From contig CM114271.1 of the NCBI GenBank assembly GCA_050084515.1, forward strand, positions 14,198,001-14,262,000: DNA of 64,000 bases. The letters run 5' to 3'. Source of the DNA: Blasia pusilla. Lineage: Eukaryota. Made by a program: the position numbers and the translations under genes. The notes under the pieces were generated by a model that ran no database searches, was not told the origin of the DNA, and worked only from the letters and a program-made list of their open reading frames with translations. This document shows, one piece after another, positions 3,802-51,013 of this stretch; within the stretch, counting starts at the first letter, position 1, and every line of letters starts with the position of its first letter.

Positions 3802-4286
3802 TGTCACATCTGAGTAGCCAATAGGTCGAGATCTATCGTGGATAGGGCGTAGGAGCCAGCTGACTATCTTGAGTGTAACTTTGTCCCACGGTGTCGGATG
3901 AGGTTGAAGATAGGTCCATTGTGTCAGGAACATCGTTTCTGACAACTTTCATGTTGAGGTCTTTTACAGCCGGGTGACTAGTTGACCAGGTCACCCGCCC
4001 CTAGTAACCTGTGCGCGCAGGTTACCAAGGGGAGGACTATTTTTAGGGGAAGAGCCTTTTGGCTCTTCCCAACCCTATATAAGAGAGGAAGATGGCTTTC
4101 CTAAGCCATCTTTCTCATGTTGGGCCGTTGGAGCACCTCCCTTGTATGTGTGTGAGCTAGGACTAGGGTGCTAGCGTCCGGATTTCTTGATAGCACAAGG
4201 TGGACTGAGGAGGCCGATGTAGATTGAGGAGTGGAGTTTTAGGCCGGGTGTGCCGTTTTTACTACTCTTTATCTTTACATGAGAAA
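3802..4286 (+). repeat. 5' terminal repeat A (alpha type) of E1
   Basis: Highly similar to 59529-60000 (+) and ~56355-56845 (-). Contains CCCTATATAAG (TATA-like) at ~4073-4083. Similarity with the other copies stops after TTTACATGAGAAA. Confidence 0.85.
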
Positions 4287-5107: not shown

Positions 5108-6538
5108 GTGACACGGAGTGGAGTGAGATACCGAGGGGCTACTAGTGAGGAGCTACCTTGCCATCCATGCGTGGCTGGATCGTCATTACTGGACATTGGG
5201 TCTGGTAACGAGATCACAGACAGAGACAGTAGTACTTGGCAGGAGATGGACGACATGGGCCATCGGGGCATGCGTCGTTTCTCGGGTGCAGTGGGCACCA
5301 TCGACTTAGATGATTTTACCCAGGAGTTCGACACATGGTGCGACTTCCAAGAGATACGGACCCCGACACGGTTCAACCCTTTCATGGCATGGAAGGGGTT
5401 GTTCTAGCACTTGGAGGGTCCTCCGATGGATGACTACATGGAGTTTCAATCACTATATTCAGTAGAGATCGATGCGTGGAGGATGTATTGGGCTCCAGGG
5501 TATGTGTCCACTTGTATTCGCGAGGCATATGATGGGATTGTGAGAGGAGAGAGACCCACACCATCAGCCCGGAGACTAGATGGAGAGGAGGGCAGTGAGA
5601 CAAGCGATGTGGCAAAGACCTCTGGTGGTAGAGGGACACCCAGCTTCAGCCCCACAGTGGAGTTCTTCCGACAGTTGGGGAAGAGTTACCAGGGCGTACG
5701 CATCGACAAGTTGAAGAGTCTACAGGATTTTCAGCGACGATCGGGTGAGAGTCTGAGAGAGGCATTCACACGCATGAGGAGGCTCATTATTGCTACATTT
5801 GGAGTGACTGAGGTGCAGTCAGTCCAGTATTGGTACGGGGTTATGGACCGAGAACTATGGAGAGTCCGAGATGCGGTGATAATTCATTCAGCGAAGCCCA
5901 CATTGAAGGTGGTCTTTGAGTTGTCTGAGCGTATTGAGCTCAACATGAGTGAGGAGCAGGTAGTGACCGCTGGATTTTCTCGAGAGTCGACGAGTCCACG
6001 AGCGACGGTGACCCCACAGGTGCCACAGCAAGCACCAATACCACGGGAGCGGGCCAATGTGCCTAGAGAGCAGGGCGGGTACCATGAGCCTATGAGGCAA
6101 CGACCCGCACCTACATATGTTGTCCAGCAGGGACCGATGTGGTCTTGTTGGACGTGTGGAGGGGCCCATAGGCAGAGAGAGTGCCTACAGCATGGGAGAG
6201 GACCACGGCGCCCGATTGCTCAGAGCCACGAGAGGATGGTCCCACCACACACCAGTGTGACCATTGCCCACGGATATGGTCACACTAGGGATAGATGTTT
6301 TGACCTTCGCCGAGGGGCACGTCCAGAGGTAGGCCGAGGGCCTGGGGGCGGTCGTCCTAGAGGAGGTAGGGGAGTTCTTCCTGGACGTGGTGGTAGAGGA
6401 CCACCACCAGCCAGAGGAGATGGAGCAAGAGCACCAGAGCCGACACTTCTCTCACGCATCGATCACTTGGAGCAGAGGATTGCTGCCATGACGATGATGC
6501 ATCTTAGGGAAGGCACGGAGCTGCGGCGGCTAGTGTGA
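5108..6538 (+). pseudogene. E1 Gag (two zinc knuckles, RGG-rich tail)
   Basis: LKSLQDFQRRSGESLREAFTRM (Gag homology region), CWTCGGAHRQREC, frameshifted CDHCxxYGHTRDRC, and GGRPRGGRG repeats. Internal TAG at 5405-5407. Confidence 0.85.
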
Positions 6539-7129
6539 CTCGGCTTCTACCTCTTACCCGACCGGGTGAGGATCTCTTGATATGGGATTTATGTGTAGTG
6601 CAGCCCAGGTTGAGGCAGCTGCAGTGGTGACTCGGGGTGCTGCGAGAGGCACCAAGCCATCGAGAGGTGGAGTTGAGATTGACCCACAAGAGGGGACCGA
6701 TGGGCGGCAGGCCAGGGTTCCACAGTCGTTCACATTGTCAAAGGCACTACACACACCATCGATGGTGCCTCGACGACCAGCGGTGCCTACAGTTTAGGCA
6801 CCTACGTCGACGTCACGAGGAGTTGGAGTGACAACTCCTATGCCGGCTTGAGTGGAGTCACTGTCGACCATAGTGTTGGAGGTGGCCACCAGAGTGAGTC
6901 AGACTCCGCTATTTTCCGCCATAGAGTTGGCGACGTTGGGAGTTGGACCAGCTGAGGTGTTCCGGTTGGCCGCCACGTTGTGTGAGCGTGGAGAGATGAC
7001 TGCTTCTTGTTCAGAGGTAGTTGAGGAGGTGGTGGACTTGCCCTCAGAGCCGGGGCTTGGGACGTTCCCCACAGAGTCATGGCATGCGGAGGCGGCGAAG
7101 TTGGTAGATATGCCAGCTCGACCGGCCAT

Positions 7130-7560
7130 AGAACAAGCAGTGGTGACACCTGGAGTAGTGTTACTGGATAACCGAGGTGGAGTATTTCGCTTGGTTAGTC
7201 CGACGGGGAAAGTATACCACCCGCAGCGCGTCCTAATTGATTCGGGAGCGCAACCCTTGATGTTAGGGAAGGCGGCGTGTTTAGCGTTGGGGTTACGGAA
7301 GGCCGACATTGAGCCTTGTCCTTCCGATCTGAGACCTCGATTCGGGCGTATCACCCACTCAGTATATGACTCGACAGGAGATTGTTGTGAGAGTCCAGCC
7401 AGAGCATGCGACGGATAGTGCTATGGTGCGCACACGTGCGATTACGACACCAGCTGAGTCGTACGATGTGTTGGTGGGGAGTAGAGTGTTATATCCCCTA
7501 GGATTCATCCTTGACTTTTGGGAGGAGACCGTTTCTTATCGGCCAGGATGGCGGTCAGGT
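7130..7560 (+). pseudogene. E1 retropepsin-like aspartic protease
   Basis: RVLIDSGAQPLMLG (catalytic DSG) and downstream YDVLVG...LYPLGF; frameshift near 7330-7370. Confidence 0.85.
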
Positions 7561-7909
7561 GACGGCTGGATGAGTCAGTTACCCGTGCAGTTTGCGGGAC
7601 GAGGTGGTCGATCACGAGGCGAGTCTGTGACCACGTTGGCAGCTTTCATAGGTAGTGTTAGCTGGCCAAGAGAGTTGTTGGAGGGGAACGCACATGCGGA
7701 GGATGTCCCAGTAGCGGATAGTCCCATGGAGAGAGAGGCCATGGCGGGTGACTCTTCCCATGTTGGCGAGGCCTCTTCACCATTGTGGGGTACGGCTCAA
7801 GAGCTACAGAGGAGTGCCGACGACCTCGTGAGGCACGCGTGGAGTCATGTTTTTATCCCACAGCCGCGAGTCACGTGGCAATCGGGCTCTTGGAGTGGAG
7901 ACGATGACC

Positions 7910-8900
7910 CCACAAGATACCACACCTGTTGTGTGGCAGTGCCCAGAGGAGGGTGTTAGGGTGTTAGATCTCTTCGGAGGGATTAGCACCGGATTGGCTG
8001 CACTATTGCAGGCGGGCATACGGGTGCATCAAGTACCTTTATGTGAGAGAGATGAGACGCTGGCGAGTATCATTCTGAAAGACGTGGCGAGATTGGTCTA
8101 GAGGTATCCTGAGTTGTTGTTGGTATCTGCAGTACGAGGATACCAGCATACGCTACCCGCCGACATCTCTTTGGTGGGGGCGCAGGATCTGGATAGAGTT
8201 GGCACCATTCATTTGGTGATTTTTGGATGGCCATGTTAGGGTCATTCATCAGCTGGCCGAGGATTTGGATTGCAGGATCCGAGGTCATGGATGTTTTGGG
8301 AGATGCGGCGAATATTACGACACTTGCAAGAGAGTCAGATATGTACTCCAGCGTACATTTTGGAGAACGTGTTGTTGTTGGGAGACACTCGTGCACGTGT
8401 GATGACGAGTGTACATTAGGTGAGGTCCTGGTTGGGACCTGTTGTGTTGTTAGATGCAGCGAGAGTTGGGTCACGTGCCCATCGTCCACGACTGTGGTGG
8501 ACGAACCTGATACCATAAGAGGTACTGAGTCGAGCATACAGTGGAGTCCAGAGAGCACCATATCTCACAGTGGATGCTATTTTGGGCTCAGGCGTCGATC
8601 TCAGGTGGTGACACGGGATGATAGACCACCGTTGGCCATGGCCAATAGGGTGGGGTAGTTGAGGGAAGCCTTACCTACGTTGGTGAGCTTCCCAGCATCC
8701 CATGCCTTTCGTTAGGGAGGGCCAGGCATGATTTGGGATGAGGTGACCAGAGCATTGGAGGAGCCTACAGCAGATGAGTGCGAGCGTGCCATGGGGTTCA
8801 CTACCGGTACTACGGCGATGCCAGGGATGACTGAGGCATCACGGAGGCAGTGTGGGGCGGCGATGGACCTCAACTATCTCACATGGATAGTCAGCCTAGG
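7910..8900 (+). pseudogene. E1 C5-cytosine DNA methyltransferase domain (DNMT3-like)
   Basis: Motif I VLDLFGGISTG (7961-7993); motif II YLYVERD; motif IV HLVIFGWPC*G (PC at 8231-8236); motif VI YILENV (ENV 8363-8371); motif VIII AHRPRLWWTNL; motif IX ECERAMGF; motif X RRQ(x)GAAMDL. Confidence 0.9.
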
Positions 8901-9201
8901 TATGGTTGAGCAGAGACGGATGCGAGTGTCATCCATGCCGTCACGTCCACGAGTTGGACCATTGCCTATAGGGTCTGTACAGGCATTGGCAGGGGGCGAG
9001 ACGAGGAGAGATAGACACCCATGGACTTCTTGGGACGTCGTTCGAGCAGAGAGTGCGAAGGCGGCTAGAGTAGCACATGTTCATTTTTCGGATGTGGAGC
9101 ATGGTGTAGGAGGTTAGAGTGGAGTGGCTGTTGCGGAGGTGGCTAGGGTTGCTACATAGCAACCAAAGCCGGAGGTTGCGTCCTCTCCGAGTGAGGTCAC
9201 G

Positions 9202-10640
9202 ATGGAGACTTGGGAGCCTGTGATAGGTCTCAAGTTGATAGGAGGAGAGCGACGGCGAGTTCAAAGGTTTCTGAGAGGGCATGTCAGTTGTTTTGCCTTC
9301 AGTATGAGAGACTTGGGTACGCTGAAGGGTCCCGGGATACGGATTGAGTTGGCTAGTGATACGCCGATCTTTCGTCGACCCTGCAGGTATTCTGATATGG
9401 AGCGAGCCTTGATTGAGCAGAGTCGGAGGACTTGTTGGAGGCAGGACTTGTGGAGTTATCACAAGGGGAGTATGCATGTGCCACAGTCATGCCGGCGAAG
9501 AAGGATATGTATGGCAATTGGACGGATAGGCGGATGTGTGGAGATTACCGTCCTATCAACCGACAAACGAGGCCAGATCGGTACACCATGCCTACTCTTG
9601 AGGAGATCTTTGATGCGGTAGGGCATGCAAAGATCTTCAGTACTTTAGATCTCCGTGTTGGCTATCATCAGCTTCCTATCAGGTTGGAGGACAAGGAGAA
9701 GACAGCATTCTGGGGGATAGATCGGTTCGGGAGAGATTGCTTGTATCAGTGGCGGTTGTTACCATTTGGGTTGAAGAACGCGCCTGCAGAGTTTCAAAGA
9801 GTGATGGATAGGATTCTGGCTGGCTTGGATTTTGTACGATGTTACATAGATGATATTCTTATCTTCAATTCCACGGTTGAGGAGCATGAGTGACACTTGG
9901 AGGAGGTGTTTCGGCGATTGCGATTACATGGGTGAAGTTACATCCGGAAAGTGCAGATTCTTTCAGGAGCAGATTGAGTACTTGGGACACACCATATACC
10001 CGAGTGGGTTAGGCGTTCAGCAGACAAAGGTAGAGGCTATTGCGTAGATTCCATGCCCTACACATGTGAGTCGAGTCCGAGCATTTCTTGGAGTGGCGAA
10101 CTTCTATCGACGGTATGTCAAGGGTTTTAGTGCGATCGCAAAGTCTTTGACCTTGTTGACGAGACTTGATCAGGTTTGGTTGTGGGGAGATGATCAGGAG
10201 CGAGCATTTCAAGAGCTCAAGGACAGGTTGACGTCCTCACCCATTTTACAGAGACTGGTTAGGGGTTGCCCATTCCAATTACATACGGATTGGAGTATGT
10301 TGGGTCTAGGAGCAGTGCTTACTCAGAGGGATGACAAGGAGAGGGAGTTTGTTGTGGCTTACGCGAGCCAATCAAACAACATTGCAGAGGCGATGTACAG
10401 CTCCTATAAGGGAGAGTGCTTGGCTGCAGTGTGGGCCGTGGCACATTTCAAGTGCTATTTATTCGACAACCCTTTCACAGTTATCATTGATCATCAGCCG
10501 TTGAGGTGGTTGATGGAGTCCGACAAGCTTACAGGCAAGCTTGCCAGGTGGGCTCTATTACTACAGGAGTATGAGTTTGAGGTGGTTCATAGGCCAGGTC
10601 GGCTGAACCAGATAGCGGATGGGTTGAGTCGTAACCCATG
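9202..10640 (+). pseudogene. E1 reverse transcriptase and RNase H
   Basis: RMCGDYRPIN, IFSTLDLRVGYHQL, LPFGLKNAPAEFQRVMD, CYIDDILIF (gypsy-type RT); FQLHTDWSMLGLGAVL, ECLAAVWAV, IIDHQPL, ADGLSR (RNase H). Confidence 0.95.
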
Positions 10641-11029
10641 TCCGAGTCAGAGAGACGACATAGGAGCTCGATGGCACGGAGAGAGTGATGAGGAGATGGT
10701 GCCCAGTTGGCATGCATCTGCCTATCTTTGTGGGTTGACTATGGCAGGTCAGCCACAAGTGATGACTCCAGTGGTGGGATTGGATGATGAGTCTTTGGAT
10801 CCGGAGGTTAGTGAGGAGGCGATAGGTGGTCGTGATATCCATGACGACGTGGAGGTTGTGGAGTTCTTGCGCACTGGCGTCATTGGGAGTACAGTGAGTG
10901 CTAGGGAGCGGGATCGGATCCTACTGAGAGCCAAGAGGTTCAGGTGGGAGGGGACTCACATTTTGCGGGTATGGGGAGATGGTAGAATACGAGTGGTACC
11001 TCATCCTTCCTAGTGAGCACGTGTAGTGC

Positions 11030-12278
11030 GACATGCCCATGAGGAGTTGGGACATTTCGGAGTAAAGCGTACTTACAGCTTACTCTAGGTTCAATATTGG
11101 TGGCGCGGCATGCATCTTTGGGTACAAAGCGGTTTGTGGCGGATGTATGGTATGTGACAGAGTGCGAGCATCCTTCAATGCTTCCACTCCCTTGATTACA
11201 TCCTTTGCCGATTATGGGTTTAGGTTATCGGTGGAGTTTAGACTTTGCGGGACCTTTGCCATTGATAGGGCGTCATCATAGGTACGTGTTGGTCATGGTG
11301 GAGCATTTCTCCAAGTGGATAGAGTTGGTGGCACTACCAGATAAGGCGAGCGAGGGAACAGCTTATGCATTTCTAGATCGTGTGCTTAGTCACTTCGGTG
11401 CACCGGTAGAGGTGTTGACTGACCAGGGTACCGAGTTCATGGGAGAGTTTTAGGCCTTGTGTGATCATGCGCTGATAGATCACCGCACCACGTCCAAAGA
11501 TCATCCTGAAGCGTATGGGTTGGCGGAGAGAGTGGTACAGACGGTGAAGAGAGGATTGCGCAAGTATGGCTTGCAGCGGGGACAGTTGAGGGATTGGGAC
11601 CTACAGTTGCCATGGTTGGCTATGGGTCATCGCTTTAGTCGGCAGGCATCCTTGGCGTCATTTTCACCATAATTTTTGCTCTTTGGGAGAGAGCCAGATT
11701 TACCTGCAGCAATTTGACGTGACATGGCGAAGGTGTTAGATCTTGATGATCCAGATGTGTGGGTACAAGCATGTTCTCAGAGGGCAGAAGTTTTTCGTAG
11801 AGTTATGCCTATGGCCTTTGAGAACTTAGCTATTGCCCAGCATAGAGATACATTGAGGTACGCGACCATTCGTGGAGGAGGTTATCGTCCAGGGATTAGG
11901 AGGTTTCATCCTAGAGATTACGTGTATTTACCGCAGGCGGCACCCACGACGCTAGATGTCACTGCAGGGCGCACGATCCTACGTGTGCGCGAGGTATTAC
12001 CGACCGGAGTCCTCATGTTGGAGGGACGGGATGGTATGGTTTGGAAGGATCATGTGCGTAATTGTGCGCCATGTCATATTCCGAACGTAGATGGGACGGT
12101 GGATCCGAGCTTGGCACTGGTACCTGCAGGCTTGAGGTGTATGTTGTGCGGATCTACGAGGGGTGCAGCCACCATGTTGGTATGTGATGGTTGTTCTCGA
12201 GGGTGGTATATGTCATATCTGACCCCCCCTCTTGATGTGGTTCCCACGGGACGATGGATGTGTCCGAGATGTGTATAG
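11030..12278 (+). pseudogene. E1 DDE integrase with C-terminal PHD finger
   Basis: HEELGHFG...CxxC zinc-binding domain; LDFAGPL / LTDQGTEF / GLAER catalytic D-D-E; terminal CMLC...[11 protein letters not shown](H)MS(C)LTPPLDVVPTGRWMCPRC matches the C4HC3 PHD pattern (~12138-12275). Confidence 0.92.
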
Positions 12279-12494: not shown

Positions 12495-15400
12495 GCCCTC
12501 AAATCTTTCATATTGATCTCTATATCAATACAAGCCTAATCTTAACTCAAGAGGCCCTAGGCTCAATACACTAGCATAGTCTTGCTATAATATATCAAGG
12601 ATTCCATTCTTGAAGTCTTACATGTAAAGTTGAGCTCCAAATGAACCTCTTAAAGGATGTATCCTTATTTCAATTGTATGGTAACCTATGTGCTCAAGTC
12701 AACATTCCAACCAGGAGATCATTATCAACCTATGATACATGTTGATAGTGTTATAGACACTCCTCAACTATCTCTATATCTAATCATCTCATATTAAACA
12801 ACAAGCAAAGACCCCTCATAAGAGATCAATCCCTCTTATGCCAGCCTAGTTGAGGCTAGTTGGCTCAAGTACAACAACTACACGCATGACACTCAGTAAC
12901 GAGTCACCAAAAGGATGTACTCATAGGTCATATCTGAGGTCCTAGAGGTCACAATCACCTCCCCAAATGAGCATTACAAAGGACCCCTCTAAGCCCCAAC
13001 GTAATTTTTCCTGCTCTCTACAATTATGATATGTTGGAATAGAGAGTGATTAGAAAAGTTGTGTTTAGAAAAGTTGAGGATATATATTAGTAGGTCAAGG
13101 ATGACCTATTGGGCAGATGGAAGACATGCGTATGTAGGATATTAGGATTTAGTTAGAGGAATTTCCTTTCTTTGAGCATGGTTGAATATACTTGGCAAAA
13201 TCTACCACTATTGCAACATAATTGTAGACGAACATAGATACTTTTTGTCAACAAGTTGATTGTTACTCTCATATGAACTAATGGACTTGCAAAATGAAAT
13301 CCTAAGGTCTCCTACACCCACACTAAGTGCCTTATATTCATATATTGTATTACTCTCGAAGAGTGCGTAAATTATTATGAGACAGAATGTTCAAAACTTC
13401 AAAATAAGGTTTGATTGTATGGTAGTTGTTGGAAAAGAAAAGGGGTGTCAAGAAAAAAATTAAAGGAAGGGATTAATTGAAGACAAGGTTGAAGTCAGGA
13501 GGGAAGGTGAGATTTGATTTGTTTGTTCTAAATAAAGAGTTGTCTATGAGAATTAGGGGATGTTTTTTCCTACAAAGAGAAAAACCAAGAGAGTAAATCT
13601 TTTGCAAGTGAGGAAGAGGAAATTTTTTTTCCTAAATACGGAGGTAATATTAAAGCTTATTTGAATGAAGGAAGAGAATTTTCAAAAATAAATAGGGAAA
13701 AGGGGATTTTTATTTATGAAGATGATATGAGAATGAAGATTTTTTGAATGTAGAAGGGGAAAGGAAGTTTTGGGAGTTTTTAATGAATTTAGAGAGGTAG
13801 AGGGAAACACATTTCTAAGTTTTTTTATTATCATACAAAAGCACCATCATACTTCCAGAAGTGTACGTAAAGCAAACTAATAAATTTATGCCCATCCAAA
13901 TGGGCAATCTTAAGCCTTTTAGGACCCATGATTTCAATCCCCCCCTCGCCCCCCTCCGGATAGTAGGTCGATAACCACCTCCCCGAATAGTCGCATACCT
14001 CGACGTATCCCGATGCTGCGCAATCGCCAAGTTCTCAAACGCCATGGGCATCACTCTCCGAAACAATTCAGCCCTCTGAGAACATGCTCACATCCATACA
14101 TCAGGGTCATCAAGGTTCAACACCTCACCAACATCTCGACAAATGGCTGCAAGTAAATTTGGCTCTCGGACATATAGCAGCAAGTACGGTGAGAAAGACG
14201 CTAAGGATGCTTGCTTGCTGAATTTGTATCCCATCGCCAACCACGGCAACTGCAGGTCCCAATCTCCTAGGTGACCTTTGTGCAAGCCATACTTGCGTAA
14301 TCCTCTCTTCACCATTTGCACAACCCTCTCCGCTAGTCCATCCGCCTCAGGATGATCTCGCGAAGTGGTGCGGTGGTCGATGAGCGCCTAATGACACAAG
14401 GCTTGAAACTCCCCGCAAAACTCTATACCCTGGTGTGTCAACACCTCATCTGATGTGCCGTGATGACTTAGAACTGATCTAGGAAGGCATACGCTACTCC
14501 CTCACTCGCTTTATTAGGCAATGCAACCAACTCTATCCACTTCGAGATGTGCTTGACCATCATCAACACATAATGACTATGGCGCTTCATCAAAGACAAA
14601 GGTCCTGAGAAAATCCAAACTCCACCTATAACCTAAATCCATGATCGAAAGTGGATGCAATTGTGGAGTTGGAGCATTGAACGAGGCTCGGACCCGATCA
14701 CAAACCATGCATATGGCAACAAACTGTGGAACGTCAGTCTGCATGCCTCACCACCAATACTGTATCTAGAGCAAGTTGTACGTCCGCTTCACTCCAAAAT
14801 GACCCAACTCCTTGTGGGCATGACGCACCAAACGTACTCTCTACAAAGGATAAGACACTACACGCACTCTACATCCTCCCAAACTCGCAACACATGTGTC
14901 TCCTCCCACCGGAACCGTCTGGCTCGCTATAGGATCCGATTATGCTCTCTAGCACCCACTGTGCTCGTGACGCTGCCAATACAGAGGAACCCCAAGACTA
15001 CTCCATCGTGGTGAATGTCTCAGCCACCTGTCATCTCCTCACCGGCCTCAAAATCTAAGGACTCTCCATCAGACCTTGCCATCAAAGTCTCAGCAATCTG
15101 GCTTTCCATAGCTAACAAGCCCAAATAGGCTGACGCGTGCCATCTTGGCACCAACTCCTCATCACTCTCACCATGCCAACAAGCTCCAGTTGTATCTCGC
15201 TGACTTGGGCATGGATTACGGCTCAAACCATCTGTATCCTGCTTGAGCATCCCACGTCTATGCACCACTTAGAAGTCATACTCCTACAACAAAAGAGCCC
15301 ACCTCGCAAGCTTCCCTATAAGCTTGTCGGACTCCATCAACCACTAAAGTGGTTGATGATCAGTAATGAGGGTAAAGGGGTTGCCAAATAAATAACACCT

Positions 15401-18400
15401 GAAATGTGCGACAGCCCACACCGCAGTCAAGCACTCATCCTCATACGAGCTATACTTTGCCTCTACAACATTGTTCGAGTGACTAGCGTAAGCCACCACA
15501 AACTCTCTACCATCATCGTCATGCTAGGTGAGCATGGCTCCAAGCCCTAACATGCGCCAATCGGTATGCAAGTGGACAACACGCCCCCTGATCGGTCTCC
15601 TCAATATGGGCACGGACGTCAATCTGTTCTTGAGCAGCTGAAATACTCTCTCCTGCTCATCCCCCTAGTGCCACTCTTGATCCACCTTGGTCATCAAGGT
15701 TAGCGGCTTCGTAATCAAATTGAAACCCTTGACGTACCGTCGATAGAAGTTTGCTAATCCCATGAATGCACGAACTCGACTCACATCTGTAGGGCGTGGA
15801 ATGCGTGAAATAGCCTCTACCTTTGTCTGCTGCACACCAAGGCCCCCTCGGTATATTGTATGACCCAAGTACTTAATCAAGTCGTAGAAAAACTTGCACT
15901 TGCCTGAATGTAGCTTCAGCCCATGTAATTGCAATCTTCGAAACACCTCCTCTAGATGTTGCTCATGCTCCTCAATCATGGGGCTAAAGACTACAATGTC
16001 ATCAATATAACACCTAGAAAAATCCAGACGTGCCAAGATCCTATCCATGACCCTGTGAAACTCAACCGAGCCGTTCTTTAACCTGAATGGTAGGAACCGC
16101 CATTGGTACAAACAATCCTTCTCGTTAGGATCGATGCCCCAAAATGCTATCTTGTGCCTGTCCTCCAATTTGATAGGCAGTTGATGGTATCCGGCTCGCA
16201 AATCTAATGAAATGAAGACCTTTGCATGCCCAATCGCATTAAAGATCTCCTCAGGTATGGGCATGGCATAGCTATTGGACTTCATCTGCCAATTGATAGG
16301 TTGGTAATCTCCACACATCCGCCTATCGGTCTAGTTGCCATGCACATCCTTCTTGGCGGGCATGATAGTGGCACATGCATACTTTCCATGCGACATCTCC
16401 ACTAGTCCTGCTCCAACCAAGTCTTGGCTCCTACTCTGAGTCAGAGCCCTCTCCATGTCACTATACCTATAGGATCGTCGGAAGATTGGCGTGTCACTCG
16501 ACAACTCAATGTGGATCCCTCGATCCTTCAGCGTACCCAAATCATGCATGCTAAATGCAAAACAACTCCTATAACTCCTCAGGAATTGATGTATCCAGCA
16601 CCGCTCTCCTTCTGTCAACTTAAGGCCCATATCTCGCTTCCAAGTCTCCATCGTGATTATGGTAGGACTCTCCGGCGCGGGTGTAGGTGGTGTCGTGCGA
16701 ATCCACATCGTCATACAACATATATCGCTGACGTACCATACTCACATACATACATAAAATAGACAAGAGCATACACAAACACAAGTGTACCACAACTGAA
16801 ATCCGTGAAAGACCTATTGTCATAAAATACGTAAAGAATCACATACAATCGAGCCAAGCCCACTCCACGACGGGAGAATCCAGGCCGAAGCTTACGGGAA
16901 CCACAATAGCCAAGAGCTCTACTCACTACCAAGGCTAACTCCCAACGCAACCGGCTCAACTCAAAGAACTAACTATTCTTTGAGTACACTCCACACTTTA
17001 CCCTCCAACCTAAGGGCAAGCCCCATTGGAATAGTCACCCTCAACGGAGTAACCCGCAACCCTATGTATGAAACCGCATCCCTACCTAGGCACTACGGCC
17101 CTACATAAGGTATGGCCTCTACTAGCACACTATAATCTACGACATAATCCATATGGTCATGACAGCTATCGTGCGAATCCATATCTTGATACAACATACA
17201 TCGTTGACATACCATACTCACATACATAACATAACATAGACGAGAGCATACACTTGCACAAGTGTACCACAACTTGCCCCCCTAACTAGCGGTTAGGTCC
17301 CTCTAACTCCTAGGTAGCCCTATACATCTACTACATGCTATACACCTTTGTGGGTGCACGAATTAGAAGGCCGGATGCTAGGTTGCCCCATCGTAAGTCG
17401 CACATCTGTAATCCATATCATGCAAAAATCAAGTCATCTACCCCTTCTAAGTACATCGAGGAAAAACCCACCTTCCAGTAGGAACAACATCCATACTTGG
17501 AGTCAAACACATCATGTGCCAACCCCTAGAACACCGATCACACACCAACATACGGGCTGCATTACCACCAGACCCACACAACATGCACCTCAAGCTAGCA
17601 CATATCATGGCTAAGCTTGGGTCAACAGTACCATCCAAATTTGGAAGATGATATGGCGTAAAATTACTCACATGGTCCTTCCAAACAACTCCATCACGAC
17701 TCTCCAACATGAGAACTCCAGAAGCTAACACCTCTTGCACTCATAAAATAGTGCGGCCTGCCGTCACATCCAACGTTGTCGGTGAAATCTGCTGCAAATA
17801 GACATAGTCCCCCACATGGAACCTACAAATTGATAGTCTATCACCTCCACCCAAAATGGTTTCATACCGCAATGTATCCCTGTGTTGAGCAATAGCAAGA
17901 TTCTCAAAGGTTTTTGGCATAACTCTCCGAAAGAGCTCTGCCCGCTGAGAACACACTTTCATCCACATCTCTAGGTCATCAAGGTTCACCACCTCACTAG
18001 ACTCTCGACAAATCGCTACTGGCAAGTCTGGATCTTGGTCGTATAACAGAAAATAAGATGAGAAGGAAGCCAAGGATGCTTGGCGATTGAACCTATACCC
18101 CATGGCTAACCATGGCAACTAAATATCCTAGTCTCTAAGATGCCCCTTCTGTAGGCCATACTTGCGCAATGCCCTCTTCACCGTCTGAACAACACGCTCA
18201 GCCAAACCATCCGCCTTTGGATGATCTCGAGACGTGGTCCGATGATCAATCAACGCCTTGTCACACAAGACCTGAAACTCACCCTGAAACTCTGTACCCT
18301 GGTCGGTCAGCACCTCAGCTGGTGCACCAAAATGACTAAGCACTCTATCAAGAAACCCATACGCCTTGTCAGGTAATGCCATCAACTCAATCCACTTGGA

Positions 18401-20789
18401 GAAGTGCTCCACCATCACCAACACATATCAATGATGTCGTATAGTCAACGATAACGGTCCTGCAAAGTCCACGCTTCAATGGTAACCCAACCCCATAATA
18501 GGCAAGGGGTGTAACTGTGGTATAAGGGCATTGAATGATGCCCTCACCCGGTCACAAATCATACAACGTGACACCAACTGCTGCACTTGAGTATGCATGC
18601 CACGCCACCAATACTGGCCAAGGAGTAAGCTATACCTACGCTTTACCCCAAAATGTCCCAACTCCTCATGGGCATGTCGCACAATGCGCTCTCTCTGAGC
18701 CAAATACGGCACCACTCGTACTCTACCATCCTCCCACACACAGAGAATATGTGTTCTCTCCAATCGATACCTCCTAGCACGTTGGAACACGGTCTCGCTC
18801 CTTGGAAATCACTATATCTGGCATCCTACTGGTCCGTAGGAACTCCAACACCAACGCGTCATCATGAATATCAGGCTGATCCGTACCACCATCTCCAACC
18901 TCAGGATCTGAAGGTTGGCCATCTACCCTCTAAGTAGAGTAAGATGTCATGTGGTCCTCCATAGTAGAGTCCACCCCTAACCAACATAAAAAGGCAAATG
19001 CATGCCAACCTGGCACCATCTCCTCATCAACCTCGCCATGCCATTTAGCCCCAGTTGCATCCTATTGGCGAGTACATGGATTTCTACTCAACCCATCAGC
19101 ATCAAGGTTGGAAACTCCAGGTCTATGTACCACCTGGAAGTCATTCTCCTATAAGATAAGAGCCCACCGTGCAAGCTTCCCTGTAAGCTTGTCAGACTCC
19201 ATCAACCACTTGAACGACTGGTGATCAGTTACAAGGGTAAATTGTGTGCCAAACAAGTAACACCTAAAGTGTGCCACAACCCACACTACTGCCAAGCACT
19301 CTCTCTCATATGAACTATAGCACGACTCCGCTGCATTATTCAAACGACTTGCATAGGCCACCACAAACTCCATGTGCTCATCATCATGTTGTGTCAACAT
19401 CGCTCCAAGTCCCAACATACTCCAATCAGTGTGCAACTAAAATGGGCGCCCTTTGATAGGTCTCCTCAAGATAGGCACGGCCACCAACAGGGCCTTGACC
19501 TCCACAAAAGCTCTCTCCTGATCATCTCCCTATTGCCACTCCTGATGTGATTTCACCAATTGGTTTAAAGGCTTTGCCATAGCACAAAATCCCTTCACAT
19601 ACCTCCGATAGTAGTTCGCCAATCCCATGAATGCCCGAACTCTACTCACATCTACCAGACAAGGAATAAGTGCAATAGCTTCCACCTTTTCTTGCTGAAC
19701 TCCCAAACCACCTGGATAGATCACATGACCCAAGTACTCAACATCCTCATGGAAGAACTTACATTTTTATGGATGCAAACGTAGACCATGAGCTTTCAAC
19801 CACTCAAACACAATCTGCAAATTTATCTGATGCTCCTCCACCGTGTTACTAAACACCAAGATATCATCAATGTAGCACTGAACAAAATCCAACCCTGCTA
19901 GGATCCTGTCCATCACTCTTTGAAACTCGGCAGGTGCATTCTTCAACCCAAAGGGTAAGAATTTCCATTGATACAAACAATCCTTGCCATGAGAGTTGAC
20001 ATCCCAAAATGTTGTCTTGGCCTTGTCACTCTCTCGAATGGGCAACTAATGGTATCTTGCCCGAAGATCCAAAGTACTGAAAATCTTTGCATGTCCCACC
20101 ATATCAAAGATCTCCTCAGCTGTAGGCATGGCATACCTATCGGCCTTGGTCTGCCGATTAAAAGGACGGTAATCTCCGCACATCCACCTATCCGTGTAGT
20201 TGCCATGCACATCCTTTTTAGCGGGCATGACAGTGGCTGATGCATACTCCCCATGCGAAAACTCCACTAATCCAGCCTCCAAAAGGTCCAACGTCCTACT
20301 CTGAATTAGGTCCCTCTCCATATCACTATATCGGTAGGTACGACGGAAGATTGGCGTATCACTAGCCAAATCAATCCGTATACCAGGTCCAACCAAAGCA
20401 CCCAACTCCTTCATGCTTAAGGCAAAACAACTCTTATAAGCATGTAGGAATTGTGTCAAGCGTCGTTTCTCACCTCCCGTAAGCTTGGGCCCAAGAAATG
20501 GCTCCCAAGTCTTCTCCAGTGGCACACTAGAGGGAGAGGACAATGCCATTGGTTGCTACGCAACCCCCTCAGAAGATGGTAAACCCTTAGCTACACCATC
20601 ATCTAATCAAATAACTCCTCCACTAGCATGAGCAACCAACTCCACATGCCCAGCCATTACATCCCATTTACTCCAAGGATGCAAAATACTACTCTCCTCG
20701 CCCCCAACCGATGCCTCTACCTTCTCGGTAGCCATCGAGCTCATCACAAGGGGTGGAAGACCCACAGACATAGTCGGAAGTCGACGCTG

Positions 20790-21790
20790 CTCGGCCATAC
20801 CAAGACTCAAAATCCAGGTCAAAAAATTCAGGTCCATGGCTTGACCCAACACATGACGTCATGAAGCCTCAGAAATGGAAGCAACCGCTGTCACACTAGT
20901 AGCAAATCCCATCACACGCTCTCTCTCATCATTGTTAGGCTCCACCAACTGTCGCACATGAGAGTCCCATACAAGCCCGGGACCACCTTCCTTGTATGCA
21001 TGTGACGAGGGAAAACTCACAAATGTGGATAGTGCCATCCTAGGCTGCCCCACACGGTACACCACTACCATGGGTGATCGATCAATAACCCTCACCACCT
21101 GAGAAAGTCGCCCAGTATCCAAGATTCTATCCACTGTAAGGCAAGGATCCCGCTGCATTGCACTCATATGTATGGTGTAGAACCTCCCTAGGCAACAAGT
21201 TTGTCCACCACAAGCGTGGACGATGTGCAAGCGAGCCAACTCGCGCTCTATCCAACAACACCGCTAGTCCAATCCAAGACTGCACCTCATGAACACTCAC
21301 CATCATCTGGGTCCGAGTGTCACCCAACAATGGAACATTCTCTAGAATGTAAGTTGGACCACGTGCTTGATGAACCCGAAGATGTCGTAACACACACAAC
21401 ATCTCCCAAAAAAATCGAGACCTAGGGTCGTGTAATCCCTCACCACGACCAGCACGTGTATGACCCTAACATGGCAATCCAGCAATCACCAAATCCACAA
21501 GACCAACCCTCTCAAGGTCCTGCGCCCCCAACAATGCAATGTGTGACGGCAAAGCACGCTAGTACCCACAAATAGCTGATGGCGGCAACAACTCAGGATA
21601 TCTCCGCATCAACTGACCAATATGTCGAGATGAGACTCTCTGGGCCATCTCATCTTGCTCCACATACACGTATCTCCGCATAGGAATATCGGCCTACAAC
21701 ATTGCAGCCAAACCACTGTTAATCCCACCAAAGAGATCTAACACACAAATGCCCTGCGGCGCATACCGCCATGCAATGGGTGTAGTATCC
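20790..21790 (-). pseudogene. E3 C5-cytosine methyltransferase domain
   Basis: ICVLDLFGGINSGLAA, VDLVIAGLPC*GH, YILENVPLLGD, AHRPRLWWTNL, ERERVMGF, LGQAMDL. Confidence 0.9.
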
Positions 21791-21877
21791 AAAAGGGATA
21801 ACCCAACTGGACCAGAAGTAGGAGTCCGCCGTGGAGCCTCCTCTTCCTCGTGAGGTATAACAGCCTCACACCAAGCC

Positions 21878-21942
21878 TCCTACATTAGGCGATCAGCCTC
21901 CTACACTAGGCGATCAACCTCCTACACTAGGCGATCAGCCTC
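21878..21942. repeat. Three tandem copies of a 21-bp unit in the E3 PR-MTase linker
   Basis: CCTCCTACA(T/C)TAGGCGATCA(G/A) x3. Confidence 0.85.
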
Positions 21943-24900
21943 TGCCATAGTGCACTGCCTGAACTCCAAAGTGGCACATCCAACGATGAGGATAACAGTG
22001 CTGCAAAACTAGGGACCTCCTCTACCTCCTCATGCACAAGAGAATCCATAGCATAAAGGTTACCCTCCAAAAAGTCTCCAGGCCAAGTGACTACTCCCCT
22101 AAAACCAGCCACAGATGCTAATACCGTTGGGGAAGACCCTCTTGGTCAAGCCCCATAAATAAATCTAACAAGAACCTGGCTCATACGTCCATCCCCGGAC
22201 TGCCAACCAGGTCTATAAGACGCTGTCTCGGTCCAATAGTCCATCTAAAAACCCATGGGGTATAATATTGCTCCTCCAACTAGTACATCATACGACTCAG
22301 CTGATGTGACCACTGTAGGTACTCCCAACTTGGAGCTATCAATCGCATGATCTGGTCTCTACTATAGAGACAACTTCTCTCATGTCATGAAATGAGACCT
22401 ATCACTGGCTCCTCCAAGTGATGTCTGAATTTGGAATGGGCAAGGCTCAAGCTCTGACCTCCGAATACCCAGGCCAATACATGCCACCTTTCCCAACATC
22501 AAAGGTTGGGCACCAGAGTCTAACAAGACTCTATATGGTCTATACACGTGTCCTGTAGGACTCACCAATCGGAATATCCCACTCCGGTTGTCCAACATAC
22601 ATACACCAAGTGTAAGCCTCTCACAATCAATGGCTGGCCGGGCTGATAATGCATCCATCTTCACCGGTGTTGCCTGCCAAGTAGCATTGGTACTCAATGC
22701 TACACCTGACATAGAGGGTTACTCCACCGCAACACTCTCATCCACCTCAGCACGTGTAGCAATAACACTCCCATGTTCACACAACATGGCCGCTAGTTGA
22801 AATACAGGAGCTAAGTCAACCCCTAAGGCCATCAACTGAGTGGCTAAAAACAATGGGGATCCCAACACTGAAGTTGCCATCCGCAATACTGCACTAGATG
22901 TTGCATCCGTATCTACTATACGCGATGTAGATGCCTCAATCCCCACTTTAGGCTCAATAGGTTGCGTAGGAACCATGGATGGAGTCCTAAGCACCTCAGA
23001 CCACAAGAATGACCGGGGGAGCCTAGCCTACCTCCCAGCCTCACCCCTCTGTGGATCCAACTCCACAGTAGCACCACGTGGCTCTGACGCTCGAGTGGCT
23101 CCTCTTGTAACTGCAGCTGATGCCTCAACCTATGCTCCACTCACCATATAAGAGAGATCATCCCCTCCATAAGAGATGGAAGCCCCTACTCCTGAACCTG
23201 CTCCATGCTAGATACCAGCCATAGTAGCCAACCTTTGCTCCAACTGCTCAATCCTGGTAGCCATAGCTGACTCTGTCATAATGGTAGGGGCAGCCACCGT
23301 AGGCTCTCTAGCCGCTGGTCCACCTCTACCACCCCTACCACCTCTACCACCTCGGCCTCTTGGAGCTACTCCACCAGGGCCGCGGCCTGTCTGAACACTG
23401 GATGAAGATCAAAGCAACGCTCTCGAGGATGACCTGGTTTCCCACAATGATCACACTGAGTTGGGGCTGACTAAGGTCCATCCTCCAAAGTCCGTCCCCC
23501 ATCCTCTTGGGGACAAAACCTCCTAACATGATCACCTCCACATGTCCAACATGATTTTCCTTGATACGGGGCAGCAAATAAAGGCAATGGTCTCTATGCA
23601 AGTGTCCCTCTAGGACCTAACTGAGGTCGTGTGTACCCCCCACGACTCCCACTACTACTACCACCACCACTACTACGAGACTGTGAGATGGACTGTTGAA
23701 CACGAGAAGTAGTAGTTGTATCCCTACTGAATGCGGATGTCACCACCCTCTCCTCCACCATGTTAAGCTCAATCTTCTCAAATAGAGCAAACACATGGGC
23801 CAATGTGGGTGAATCATCACTCATAAGAGTAGCATCACGTACCCTATGGCGCAACTCTTTGTCCAAGATCCCATACCAAAACTAGACTGCGTAAGCCTCA
23901 GTCACACCTTGGGGAACTGAAATCAAGCATCGCATACGAGTGTATGCCTCACAAAGACTCTCACCAATATTTCGCTCAAATTCTTGAAGACTCCTCAACT
24001 TTTCTGTCTTCACCCCCTGATAGTTCTTCTTCAACCTCTTGAAGAACTCTGCAACTGGGCTGAACGATGGTGGGGCACTAGTACCTCCACTAGTACCCCC
24101 ACTGGTACCTCCACTGGTACCTCCACTCCGGCTCGTACTTGCACCACTCAACGTCGGGCTAGCTGACACAATAAGAGCACTACTACCAATACCACCATGG
24201 GTGATAGACACATAGCCTGGAGACCAATGTTGTCTCCACGCCTCAATCTCAGCAGTATGGTCCCTCCTAAATTCATGGTAATCATCCATGGGTGGTCCCT
24301 CCAAGTGCTGAAACAACCCCTTCCAAGCCAAGAAGGGTGTAAACAACGTGGCGTTCCGCAACATCTACATATCACATCACGTATCAAACTCTTGAATCCT
24401 CCAACTCAATGGTGCCGACTGCACCCGAGTATCTTCGTGGGCCCTTCATGACCCCATACATCTCGTCCATGTCCCAAATCAATGGAGCTGCAACACTCGA
24501 TAACAACGTAGAAGACTCGGTGTTTGGAACACCCTTGTCCTCTTCTTCATCAACCGTCGGAAGTGGAAAAGGTAGCCGATACCTCAATCCACTCCATGTA
24601 AAACCACCATTGTTCGCACCACGGTCCCCAACCAGACCACCAAACAGCTCTGTGATGACCAACGCCGATGCCGCACCACCACCAAATCACCACCACTGAG
24701 TAACCAAGTGACGTCGATGTCAATGTACTATTCTAGCCCTGATAGCTATGGGTGTGGGCAACCTTACTTGTCATCACCACAAGAAGCCTCCCACGCTCTA
24801 GAAGTCATCACTCCACTCTCACCGTGAGAGAAACAAATGTAGTTTGACTGGTCATCACTCCAGCCTCACTACCAATAGCACACAGGAGTAAAACTACTCT

Positions 24901-26152
24901 GGAAATCAGCGTCAGCCCTAACAATGGGCGCGCAAGCAAGAAGCAACGATGGAGGGGATCCAAACACAGGAAGTCCAATGACAACCCTCCAATCGCAACT
25001 GGAAATACAAAATGGAAATCAAGGTAACAAAATCCACCAAACATGGCGCCCCCTGAATCCACAGAACCAACCACACAATTCTAACGCAATAGCTACTCTG
25101 TCGGTGGTCGATGACGTGCTAGTCGCACTCGCAGCACCTGAAAATGTCATCCGCATGGAGAGGCCACACCGTACTATGCGCTAGAGGTCCATCAACCGAA
25201 AACTCGAGATGCATAAAAGCGCCTAACGCATCTCCAAATAACACCAAATGAGCTACACCAGTGTGTACACTGGCATAGTTAAGTACTCAGCAGTTAAGCG
25301 TCTTCCAGACAGAATAGCCCAAAGATGGGTGACCAGTTATGCACCACTTAACTCACAAATCCTGTAAAAACTGCCTCACGCCCAAGCAAGCTTGCTTGCT
25401 TGCTCCTTGCTCCTTACTGCGCCTCTCATGCCCACTCGCCCCAAGCTACCACGAGTCGCCTCGATGCCTCGAAGCCTCGAAGCCTCGAAACCTTGAAACG
25501 CCAAGAAATGCTCAAGACATGCCCCGTTCGCCACACTTCGTTATGGAGAGAGGCCCAACCAAGGCGCCCCCAATGGGATAGGCGTCTCCAACAACGGATG
25601 AGTCACCAACCAGCCCCTCCGATCTGTTGTCCACCATAGCTAGACCTTGAGCTAGTCCGCAAAATTTTGACCAGCAATTACTCCACAAATCCTCGACCAA
25701 AATTGAATCTGTTTCGACTAGAATTCAATTGGCCACCATAGCTATCTCTCCACAAAAAATCAGCTACAACCGAGCTCTATACTTCGAGTTAAAAATCAGA
25801 CAAATTTGTTGTCCATACACCTCCAGAATTGCAAATCCGACAGCGCTTCCGCCCCAATTCATGCACACAGAAATTTGCAACACTCTTTCACCACAGCAAC
25901 AATCCGCTCCACACACTCAACCAGAATCTTCAATCTTTGATAACTTCCAACTCCTCGACGAAATCCGGCGATCTAAAGTGCGTTGGAAAGCTCTCAGCAA
26001 GGCGCTTCTTTCTCAACCAACCACGCATCAGATCCACACCCCCAACATAGGCCACAAGCCACGAACATCCACGGCTGAGTACACAATCAGTCCTAACCAG
26101 ATCCTACTGATCCACGATCGAAGCTACCATTGATCTACTCTAGTTGTTTGAG

Positions 26153-26520
26153 TGAAATCCGTGAAAGACCTACTGTCATAAAACACATAAAGAATCACAT
26201 ACAATCGAGCCAAACCCACTCCACGACGGGAGAATCCAGACCGAAGCTTGCGGTAACCACCATAGCCAAGAGCTCTACTCACTACCAAGGCTAACTCCCA
26301 ACGCAACAAGCTCAACTCAAAGAACTAACTGTTCTTTGAGTACACTCCACACTATACCCTCCAACCTAAGGGCGGGCCCCACTGGAAAAGTCACCCTCAA
26401 CGGAGTAACCCCCAACCCTATGTATGAAACCGCATCCCTACCTAGGCACTATGGCCCTACATAAGGTATGGCCTCTACTAGCACACTATACTCTACAACA
26501 TAATCCGGATGGTCATGATA
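26153..26520 (-). repeat. 5' terminal repeat A1 (gamma type) of E3
   Basis: Same length as, and highly similar to, 16797-17164. Its start TATCATGACC is read as a G>A variant of the TGTCATGACC seen in A2. Confidence 0.9.
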
Positions 26521-26853
26521 GTGGTTGCTATGGTGTAACCCCGTCTCGGACATCAAAACTCGACTGCTCCCTTACTGCCAACTGCAAAATCGAATCTCCA
26601 TGTGCAGTGCCCGGAACCACACTCGATGTTGTGGCTACCATCTCTTGGCATACCTGCAAAAAATCCCAAAAAGTCCAAGGATGTCTCTCCCGATCACTCA
26701 TGGTGTGTCGATCTCCTTGGGTCTCGCCCTTAGGCACTGCCTCAACCGTGTTGGTAGGCATTGGGCTCACCAATGCAACCGCTGTGATCTGTTGCATCCT
26801 CAAATGACACTACTCAGCTACTCCTAAGTTGAAAATCCACGTCAAGGAGTTCA

Positions 26854-27882
26854 TATCGCGACCCTCATAACCAAACAACACCAAATAGGCACCAAGCGGA
26901 ACATCTGAACTCAAGTGGACTCACGCTGCGATGTTTGCGCTTTGGAGAGGCGTTTGGAAAGGTCTCTTGGAAAAGTCCAAGAGAAGAAACACGGAATAGA
27001 GTTGCGCATTTTGTGTGTTAGTGGTCGTGACCAGGAAACCTAGACCAAACGCGAGCCAAGACTTGAGATGAGTTGAGTCTTGGAAGGTTGGCTGCCAAGG
27101 AGGTGAGAACCAGTTTTTGAACACGACTAGCGTTTGGGGAATTTGACTATGTTTTGGACCATAACGTTTAGCCCCAAGATGTGTTCGAGACAAGTAAGGC
27201 GCGTTGGAATGCTTATCTTGAGATACTTCCAACGCACCAAAGATCTCAGCGAACGCATAAGTACAGACTAAGATATTGGCCGAAAACGACTGTGAGAGCA
27301 ATCTGGTTTAGGGCCAATTGGAGAGGCCCAGGTGTCTTTCCCTAAAGTTAGGGGAGGCCCGGAGATCCCTAAAAGTACTAGTAAGGGAGCAGTCTCTCCA
27401 AGATGTCTTGGAACACAAATCCCTACTTTGAGCGCCAAACGGCGTCTCAGAGGCACGGGATGGAACGGGAGTTTGGCGTTGGAACTCAAAACCCAAACCT
27501 GATCCAAGGGAGTGGACTTTGTATGCCACACTTGGATTCCAACCCGAGATTCACTTTGTGCGAGTCTCGGTTAGGGACTCATTGGATGTCCATCGGACAA
27601 TTGGAACCGCCAGGCACGAAACGCCGTTTGAGGTTCTTGAACCGACCAGAAAGTCTGTCCCAAGTCCTCCAAGACTTGCCGGTGTTGTAAACCGCAAAAC
27701 TAGGAAGGTTGAGCTTGATGAGATACCGAGACGATAACTTGGAAAGTTAGCCCACTGATTGATCCAAGACCCGACTAACCAGAGTGCGTGTTTGGATTTG
27801 GATCAGCATTGAGAGCGTGACCTATTGAACGCACACTTTCGCAACAACAAGATTAACGTTCAAGGAGAGTAGGCGCACGATA
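26854..27882. mobile_element. Solo-LTR-like insert of an unrelated family (1029 bp) with 5-bp TSD GTTCA
   Basis: Interrupts the E2 MDLN..LTWI coding stretch. Flanked by GTTCA (26849-26853 and 27883-27887); ends TATCG...CGATA; no convincing ORF. Confidence 0.75.
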
Positions 27883-27884
27883 GT

Positions 27885-50700: not shown

Positions 50701-51013
50701 CTGGAAAGAATGCCCCTGATCAGTCTCCTCAATATGGGCACAGACGTCAATCTGTCCTTGAGCATGTGAAATGCTCTCTCTTGCTTATCCCCCCAGTGCC
50801 ACTCCTCATCCACCTTGGTCATCAAGGTTAGCGACGTCACAATCAAACTGAAACTATTAATGTACCGTCGATAGAAGTTCGCCAATCTTATGAATGCACG
50901 AACTCGACTCACATTAGTATGGTGTGGAATGCGTGAAATAGCCTCTAACTTCGTCTGTTGCACACCAAGGCCCCCTGGGTATATCATATGACCCAAGTAC
51001 TCAATCAGGTCGT

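Follow-up and report, generated by a model that had tools for sequence, protein, structure and literature searches.

DNMT3-type cytosine methyltransferases in decayed Ty3/gypsy retrotransposons of the liverwort Blasia pusilla

Cytosine methyltransferase (MTase) sequences are present in several retrotransposon copies within a 64,000-nucleotide stretch of the Blasia pusilla genome (contig CM114271.1, positions 14,198,001 to 14,262,000; this whole stretch is referred to as the window). The window is a nest of decayed copies (labelled c1 to c8) of a bryophyte Ty3/gypsy lineage. The preferred reading, to which a probability of about 0.8 is given, is that this lineage carries a DNMT3-type MTase in its first open reading frame (ORF1), a conserved UAG after it and a second frame (ORF2) ending in a PHD finger, and that the MTase was kept under purifying selection. 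Such elements are of a kind already known from one alga (Klebsormidium) and from dinoflagellates. What is new is their occurrence in a land plant, with several diverged families in one liverwort, and a layout in which the MTase is the last ORF1 domain before a conserved in-frame stop and the integrase is PHD-ended.

The methyltransferase domain and its family

The original prediction placed a C5-MTase upstream of the reverse transcriptase (RT) in five copies from three subfamilies. Searches by tblastn with two Marchantia gene models find the domain close to the predicted places: c1 (7952-8889, plus strand), c2 (21900-20811, minus strand), c3 (28652-27883, minus strand, with motif I at 28837), c4 (55988-55314, minus strand) and c5 (58869-58633, minus strand). 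The motif set described in that prediction is visible both in three-frame translations and when the copies are aligned to an intact Marchantia protein. All five window copies that span the protease/RT junction have the MTase between protease and RT. The subfamilies are c1 with c6, c2 alone, and c3 with c4 and c5, a grouping that fits the synonymous distances; by self-comparison, the three differ by about 34% in DNA. The MTases of c1 and c2 are as follows, and those of c3 to c5 are listed with their elements below.

7952..8916, plus strand: c1, predicted DNMT3-type C5 MTase (Pfam PF00145 32.7 bits, alignment); 6 in-frame stops, one at the Gln of the PCQ motif
20781..21900, minus strand: c2, MTase (PF00145 26.3 bits); 4 in-frame stops, one at the Gln of PCQ

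A search with the Pfam DNA_methylase profile (PF00145; curated cutoff 22 bits) had been proposed as a check. All three N-terminal read-throughs, in which stops are written as X, score above the cutoff (c1 and c2 as listed, c3 47.7 bits, a score inflated because its catalytic motif is tandemly duplicated). No match was found for any of nine uninterrupted ORF fragments or for two C-terminal read-through stretches. The c3 duplication repeats the PCQG motif at about 28500-28590. In c2, another small tandem duplication lies at 21900-21950, with the repeated unit just upstream of the MTase; RNA reads of c2 relatives skip the duplicated unit (joints 21900 to 21942/21948).

All of the MTase-bearing copies in the window are dead. 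The MTases of c3, c4 and c5 contain six, five and two in-frame stops, respectively, and there are one to three frame switches per copy among c1 to c5, with none in c4. Single frameshifts lie near 8590-8610 in c1 and near 21160 in c2. An internal deletion has removed motifs IX-X from c4, which keeps motifs I-VIII, and c5 retains MTase fragments only. Of the window copies, c4 alone has an undamaged PCQ motif: a stop codon replaces the Gln in c1 and c2, c3 has a stop at the Trp just before the motif, and in c5 the Pro is changed to Ser.

The closest matches of the domain are DNMT3 proteins. A phmmer search of PDB sequences with c2 returned 31 distinct sequences, 29 of which are DNMT3A, DNMT3B or DNMT3C (best E-value: 3.7e-6); the other two are titled 'DNA methyltransferase', and we take them to be tobacco DRM. 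A profile built from 13 short intact relatives is most similar to DNMT3A (E-value: 3.4e-29), followed by DNMT3B/C (about 1e-25), DRM (7e-16, in a permuted alignment), HaeIII/HhaI (about 1e-9), DNMT2 (3e-9) and DNMT1 (0.01). An origin from a bacterial or phage Dcm enzyme is rejected on this ranking (DNMT3A 3.4e-29 versus HaeIII/HhaI about 1e-9). It had been claimed from the letters that motifs VIII-X resemble DNMT3 and that the motifs run from I to X in non-permuted order. Both points are borne out by HMMER, in which the domain aligns colinearly with DNMT3A over motifs I to X, including the DNMT3A motifs quoted with that claim, whereas DRM aligns only when permuted.

The catalytic Cys, Gln and Glu are invariant in the 13 intact relatives. 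The S-adenosylmethionine loop of motif I, PCQ, ENV and the DNMT3-like motifs VIII-X are invariant or nearly so in intact relatives. An AlphaFold model of one of these, P0176 (75% identical to c2), has a predicted local distance difference test (pLDDT) score of 86.7. Its best PDB folds among the matches listed are all DNMT3A, DNMT3B or DNMT3C (E-value: 3e-19; target template modelling [TM] score 0.81-0.85). The catalytic domains of animal DNMT3A and DNMT3B therefore provide the best profile and fold matches and a colinear alignment, but identity to them is only 20-23%, the enzyme described here comes from a retrotransposon and not from a host gene, and Pfam finds neither PWWP nor ADD in the element. 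Because protist and algal DNMT3s also occur without these companion domains (PMC12344493, accessible text), PWWP and ADD do not define DNMT3 across eukaryotes. On its profile ranking and modelled fold, the domain is predicted to be a DNMT3-like, non-permuted C5 MTase, and this assignment is sound.

Reading frames, selection and expression

The prediction that the MTase is embedded in a polyprotein between protease and RT holds for its position only. Rather than lying within a single polyprotein, the MTase ends ORF1 and is followed by an in-frame UAG. In c1 and c2, the MTase frame runs about 60-80 codons past the MTase to a TAG, and the same frame then enters RT. The sequence TAG CAA CCA stands at the homologous site in four of the five copies (c1, c2, c3 and c5), covering all three subfamilies; in c4 the site is mutated.

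9157..9165, plus strand: c1, ORF1 stop TAG CAA CCA, with ORF2 in the same frame
20550..20558, minus strand: c2, ORF1 stop TAG CAA CCA, with RT in the same frame
26530-26522, minus strand: c3, ORF1 stop TAG CAA CCA
58311-58303, minus strand: c5, ORF1 stop TAG CAA CCA

TAGCARYYA occurs eight times in the window against 3.7 expected, a count reached in 3 of 100 shuffles, and four of the eight are these homologous ORF1-stop sites. ORF1-type proteins of Marchantia, Calypogeia and metagenomes terminate at the homologous site, and the Marchantia gene model P0177 links MTase to RT only by skipping the stop-bearing stretch. A full RT match is present in 47 metagenome loci; in 45 of these, an in-frame TAG or TAA with CAA as its next codon stands exactly 17 codons ahead of the match. 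The contexts of these stops are TAGCAACCC (31 loci), TAACAACCC (12), TAGCAACTC (1) and TAGCAACCT (1). Because a conserved in-frame UAG, with CAA CCN directly after it, follows the MTase and precedes RT, the element has two frames between its LTRs: ORF1 encodes gag, protease and MTase, and ORF2, in the same frame, encodes RT, RNase H, integrase and the PHD finger.

In plant viruses, type I readthrough is signalled by a UAG with CARYYA directly after it (PMC5382211, accessible text). The window stop (UAG CAA CCA) resembles the tobamovirus type I leaky stop described there, also in having a polymerase downstream in frame; relatives of the element differ from it in carrying CAA CCC or TAA. Judged from this context, the ORF1 stop is probably leaky.

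The MTase has the substitution pattern of a maintained coding sequence. Ratios of nonsynonymous to synonymous divergence (dN/dS) were calculated by the Nei-Gojobori method on codon alignments anchored to Marchantia proteins. For the MTase, the six pairings of c1 to c4 give dN/dS values of 0.14-0.20; saturation is lowest in c3-c4, with dN 0.13, dS 0.86 and dN/dS 0.15. Comparisons with the short c5 fragments give 0.18-0.36. RT-RNase H values are 0.11-0.15 (c1, c2, c4 and c7), apart from the closest pair, c4-c7 (0.24). Gag and protease give 0.19-0.26 between subfamilies and 0.72-0.84 between c1 and c6, within one family, the latter being what decay after insertion would give. The claim of selection across subfamilies is supported by the MTase values, which are close to those of RT-RNase H. 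The MTase belonged to the coding capacity of the element itself, and purifying selection acted on it during the divergence of the subfamilies.

In the ORF1 parts of c1 to c5, 28 of the 49 in-frame stops correspond in the Marchantia reference to Gln codons (19, turned into TAG), Arg codons (6, turned into TGA) or Trp codons (3). Because this pattern fits C-to-T decay of methylated CHG and CG sites by deamination, the copies have probably been methylated. The same 28 stops bear on the possibility, raised by de Mendoza et al. (PMC5890265, accessible text), that such an enzyme serves the host: the element would silence itself or be tamed, and the selection would reflect host benefit or slower transposition. 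Deamination of methylated cytosines is compatible with this, but C-to-T decay is also expected from ordinary silencing by CMT, DNMT3 and MET and does not reveal the methylating agent. Moreover, selection on a multi-copy element would act mainly through its own transposition success. Service to the host is accordingly considered quite unlikely.

Relatives of c2 are expressed. In all three RNA runs that carry the same species label, each of the 30 bins of c2 (17300-24500) is covered, at a depth of about 13-180. Most first mates map to the plus strand; in conventional stranded libraries, this indicates minus-strand RNA, the sense strand of c2. In one run (X20), 2755 of 3873 reads are 90-95% alike to c2 and only 11 are at least 99% alike. 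Because most reads are 90-95% alike, the RNA comes mainly from related copies elsewhere and not from the dead c2 locus. Sense-strand transcription thus takes place from related copies at other sites in this species.

Element structure and relatives

The elements had been classed as Ty3/gypsy retrotransposons with a DDE integrase, in agreement with the Pfam order of c1: RVT_1, RT_RNaseH, rve and a C-terminal PHD, with the protease upstream. In addition to the MTase and stop given above, c1 comprises the following regions.

3802..4286, plus strand: 5' terminal-repeat-like sequence (self-blastn, 90-91% identity to other window occurrences)
5246..6538, plus strand: gag-like region with a CCHC-like knuckle (tblastn to residues 1-350 of Marchantia P0183; ORF listing)
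6852..7418, plus strand: aspartic protease region with a DSG motif (ORF listing; homology to the protease part of P0183/P0177)
9417..11013, plus strand: RT and RNase H (Pfam RVT_1 66.5 bits, RT_RNaseH 109.9 bits)
11196..11453, plus strand: integrase core (Pfam rve 48.3 bits)
11718..12278, plus strand: integrase C-terminal region, PHD finger and ORF2 stop (Pfam PHD 30.7 bits)

Neither the gag-like region nor the protease region of c1 has a Pfam match, and intact relatives match Asp_protease_2 only below the curated cutoff. The c1 terminal-repeat sequence also heads c6 (59529-60001) and occurs inverted at 56356-56845. No direct repeat of at least 30 bases that would mark a 3' long terminal repeat (LTR) of c1 was found within 3300-14100. 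A PHD-ended integrase is present in all four window copies that reach the end of ORF2 (c1, c2, c4 and c8), in many metagenome relatives and in one Haematococcus relative with another domain order. The PHD finger stands where chromoviruses carry a chromodomain.

The remaining copies, and the further PHD ends, are as follows.

16797..26521, minus strand: c2, complete LTR element inserted into c3/c7 (self-comparison, junction alignments)
26515..31303, minus strand: c3, 5' half (gag to ORF1 stop) of a split element, with the MTase at 28837-27883
13953..16691, minus strand: c7, 3' half of the same split element (RT-RNase H-integrase), cut before the PHD finger
51969..55988, minus strand: c4, 5'-truncated, with the MTase at 55988-55314 and RT to PHD present; ORF1 stop mutated
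57628..58869, minus strand: c5, with internal deletions; MTase fragments at 58869-58633 and 58605-58411, and part of RT after the ORF1 stop
59529..64000, plus strand: c6, c1 family; terminal repeat, gag and protease, the window ending before the MTase
47779..51016, minus strand: c8, 5'-truncated; RT-RNase H-integrase-PHD only
17447-18007, 51978-52529 and 48738-49298, minus strand: further PHD ends, the same end as in c1

The LTRs of c2 (26521-26153 and 17165-16797) are 369 bp long and 93.8% identical and have TG..CA ends. This element is inserted within about 10 bases of the ORF1 stop of c3 (borders 26515/16691). The insertion flanks in c3/c7 overlap by about 11 similar bases, and the 3' LTR of c2 is separated from the point where c7 resumes by about 105 unexplained bases. 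Copies c4 and c8 adjoin head to tail. The start of c4 lies inside the MTase, about 70 bases from the inverted c1/c6 terminal repeat (55988-56845), which suggests a deletion derivative or a recombinant. The element sense strand (c1 to c4; loci L004, L006 and 50 others) is G-rich, C-poor and somewhat T-rich, with a GC skew of +0.12 to +0.25; two relatives with an open MTase frame have the same skew, and the skew of the host exon described below is +0.08. At 2166-3106 (minus strand) lies what is left of an unrelated, AT-rich LTR retrotransposon, in which a gag zinc knuckle and a protease-like motif can be recognized. Rfam has no match in the window.

A host gene encoding a WD40 protein (MAK11/PAK1IP1-like) stands among the retrotransposons as two exons in 43887-45221 (minus strand). 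The part compared (44505-45221) is 79% identical to a Marchantia paleacea protein, 78% identical to one of Calypogeia fissa and 62% identical to one of Physcomitrium. Because this neighbouring gene is closest to the two liverwort proteins, the host can be identified as a liverwort, in keeping with the earlier assumption of a land plant.

Relatives of the MTase are numerous, with 1637 representative proteins at E-values below 1e-3 and 396 below 1e-10, many of them long polyproteins; metagenome polyproteins number in the hundreds. The 40 matches listed in a search of named proteins comprise 16 from Marchantia polymorpha, two from Calypogeia fissa, two from Sphagnum and 20 unnamed. The M. polymorpha models listed are 476-1333 amino acids long and 50-71% identical, and these close relatives in M. 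polymorpha, Calypogeia and Sphagnum are annotated only as hypothetical proteins. The profile search adds Mesostigma viride, Haematococcus lacustris and one Symbiodinium-labelled protein; no named Klebsormidium nitens or host DNMT3 sequence is among the matches of the relative searches. Intact relatives match PF00145 with 22.8-47 bits, except that Marchantia P0194 and Sphagnum fallax P0213 have no match to it. A wider cluster search yielded only generic DNA_methylase clusters.

Two domain orders are found in the 244 MTase proteins fetched: 58 have protease-MTase(-RT-integrase) and 74 have RT-MTase-integrase(-PHD), while 112 have the MTase alone. A tree of 70 rows was built by a quick search, with the Symbiodinium-labelled protein as outgroup (on a long branch) and with support from the Shimodaira-Hasegawa-like approximate likelihood ratio test (SH-aLRT) only; rows at least 55% identical to a kept row and most unlabelled MTase-only rows were dropped. 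In this tree, the window copies fall in a clade with Marchantia, Calypogeia and Sphagnum proteins (SH-aLRT 99%). The 48 rows with RNase H-MTase-integrase order form one clade (SH-aLRT 96%), and the MTase has therefore moved once within the element lineage. Two Sphagnum (moss) rows, one of them 73% identical to c2, are placed within the liverwort rows, adjacent to c2 and Marchantia. The families may be older than the moss-liverwort split, or the element may have moved between the groups.

Plant retrotransposons pick up host fragments, and the window holds no intact copy, so the MTase might be seen as a recent host-gene capture or a nested element, carried as a passenger without a role. This view is already contradicted. 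The domain has the same position and frame in all five copies, from three subfamilies about 34% apart in DNA, and occupies the corresponding place in proteins of Marchantia, Calypogeia, Sphagnum and metagenomes (the 58 of 244 with protease-MTase(-RT) order). Its dN/dS is 0.14-0.20, the ORF1 stop comes after the MTase and not before it, and no direct repeats of at least 30 bases flank it within 3300-14100. A passenger is thus extremely improbable. A separate nested insertion was also rejected as a candidate in its own right, the MTase being in frame, in every site-spanning copy and in the same place in the relatives of other species.

The original prediction mentioned retrotransposon-borne DNMTs from DIRS and LINE elements only. 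This needs correction, as a Gypsy DNMT3 was published in 2018 (de Mendoza et al., PMC5890265). The accessible text of that paper describes KnitGypsy-Dnmt3 of K. nitens, an LTR Gypsy element whose Pol ORF contains a non-permuted DNMT3 with Ka/Ks below 0.2; according to a figure legend, its repeats are arranged as in DIRS. In the parts available, PMC12344493 cites the 2018 work and a 2026 preprint (10.64898/2026.05.21.726589) mentions 'streptophytes (Gypsy-DNMT3)'. A 2019 paper states that transposon-encoded DNA methylases are absent from land plants. The literature searched, which did not extend to subscription journals and supplements, contains no report of DNMT3-bearing gypsy elements in liverworts, mosses or other land plants.

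KnitGypsy-Dnmt3 and the window elements are alike in having a non-permuted DNMT3-type domain with the key catalytic residues in the coding region of a streptophyte LTR Gypsy element, and in purifying selection (Ka/Ks below 0.2 there, dN/dS 0.14-0.20 here; PMC5890265, accessible text); this is a likeness by element kind and description. They differ in host: the window elements come from a land plant, a liverwort, and their relatives are found in other liverworts and in Sphagnum. Plain LTRs in c2 also contrast with the DIRS-like repeats of the algal element, a feature that may be specific to K. nitens. Compared with the text description, two further features appear to set the window elements apart: the MTase ends ORF1 before an in-frame stop, and the integrase ends in a PHD finger.

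SymbioDIRS-Dnmt3 of Symbiodinium likewise has a DNMT3-type domain in a retrotransposon polyprotein, and a 'Skav'-labelled protein matches the profile (E-value: 1.4e-11), but it belongs to a DIRS element with a tyrosine recombinase instead of a DDE integrase and is far more distant. Gypsy polyproteins of metagenomes and a green alga (among them P0022 and Haematococcus lacustris P0256) share the PHD-ended integrase and have an MTase 33-41% identical over about 320 residues; in these, unlike in the window elements, the MTase lies between RNase H and integrase. The window elements are land-plant members of the Gypsy-DNMT3 elements described in Klebsormidium, and the 2019 statement on land plants does not hold for bryophytes.

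Proposed functions and significance

Several points weigh against the reading given at the outset. With zero intact copies, the window itself nowhere shows an active enzyme, and just 2 of the 80 metagenome loci have an open MTase frame. The RNA reads that are 90-95% alike demonstrate that relatives are transcribed, not that their frames are open. The dN/dS values are rough because dS is near saturation in most subfamily pairs and the alignments are protein-guided. Descent from DNMT3 rests on profile and fold ranking, the tree having no named host DNMT3, DRM or K. nitens rows. The CAA CCC of relatives is not an exact CARYYA; readthrough is inferred, and termination with separate initiation of ORF2 may also be possible. 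Finally, according to the accessible text of PMC5890265, the only bench test of a Gypsy-DNMT3 domain is a yeast assay in which the K. nitens domain was inactive, a result that its authors call inconclusive.

That inactivity would fit a domain kept for something other than DNA methylation, such as methylation of RNA (as for DNMT2) or binding of DNA or chromatin without catalysis. RNA methylation was raised by the same authors for LINE-borne DNMTs (PMC5890265), and placement in the gag-protease frame puts the MTase beside an RNA-packaging protein. However, intact relatives keep the catalytic Cys, ENV, the motif I loop and motifs VIII-X, the profile puts DNMT3A 20 orders of magnitude above DNMT2, and the DNMT3 domains of SymbioDIRS methylate CG in DNA, as shown in yeast (PMC5890265, accessible text). 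A non-DNA function is therefore regarded as unlikely.

The DNMT3-type element read from the window could operate as follows. Ribosomes would usually halt at the UAG, giving Gag-protease-MTase, and occasional readthrough would give a fusion to RT and integrase. If ribosomes mostly stop at the UAG after the MTase, the enzyme would be made in amounts similar to Gag and packaged in the particle. The PHD finger would read the state of histone tails and steer integration, as chromodomains do in chromoviruses; by this analogy, a role in steering integration is probable. The target of the MTase may be the new cDNA of the element, or DNA at or near the insertion site, much as the original prediction proposed; this suggestion is favoured over the others but made tentatively and at somewhat less than even odds. 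Action in trans on host or rival DNA is doubtful. The remaining probability may fall to an RNA target, a non-catalytic role or something else.

In its fullest form, the proposal is that bryophytes harbour an old, abundant and still transcribed gypsy lineage that makes an active DNMT3-type enzyme at Gag-like levels and aims its integration by a PHD finger. This is possible but should be held as speculative. If it is true, these elements would methylate their own cDNA or the surrounding DNA, part of the DNA methylation of liverworts and mosses would be written by transposons and not by the host, and the published claim that transposon-encoded DNA methylases are missing from land plants would be wrong. 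As DNA methylation is the main means by which plants silence transposons, a transposon with its own de novo methyltransferase is striking. Because Marchantia can be transformed and offers methylome tools, the benefit that a transposon draws from having a DNMT3 of its own can now be tested. The layout of the element, with an MTase ending the Gag-protease frame, a conserved in-frame stop ahead of RT and a PHD-ended integrase, yields concrete hypotheses.

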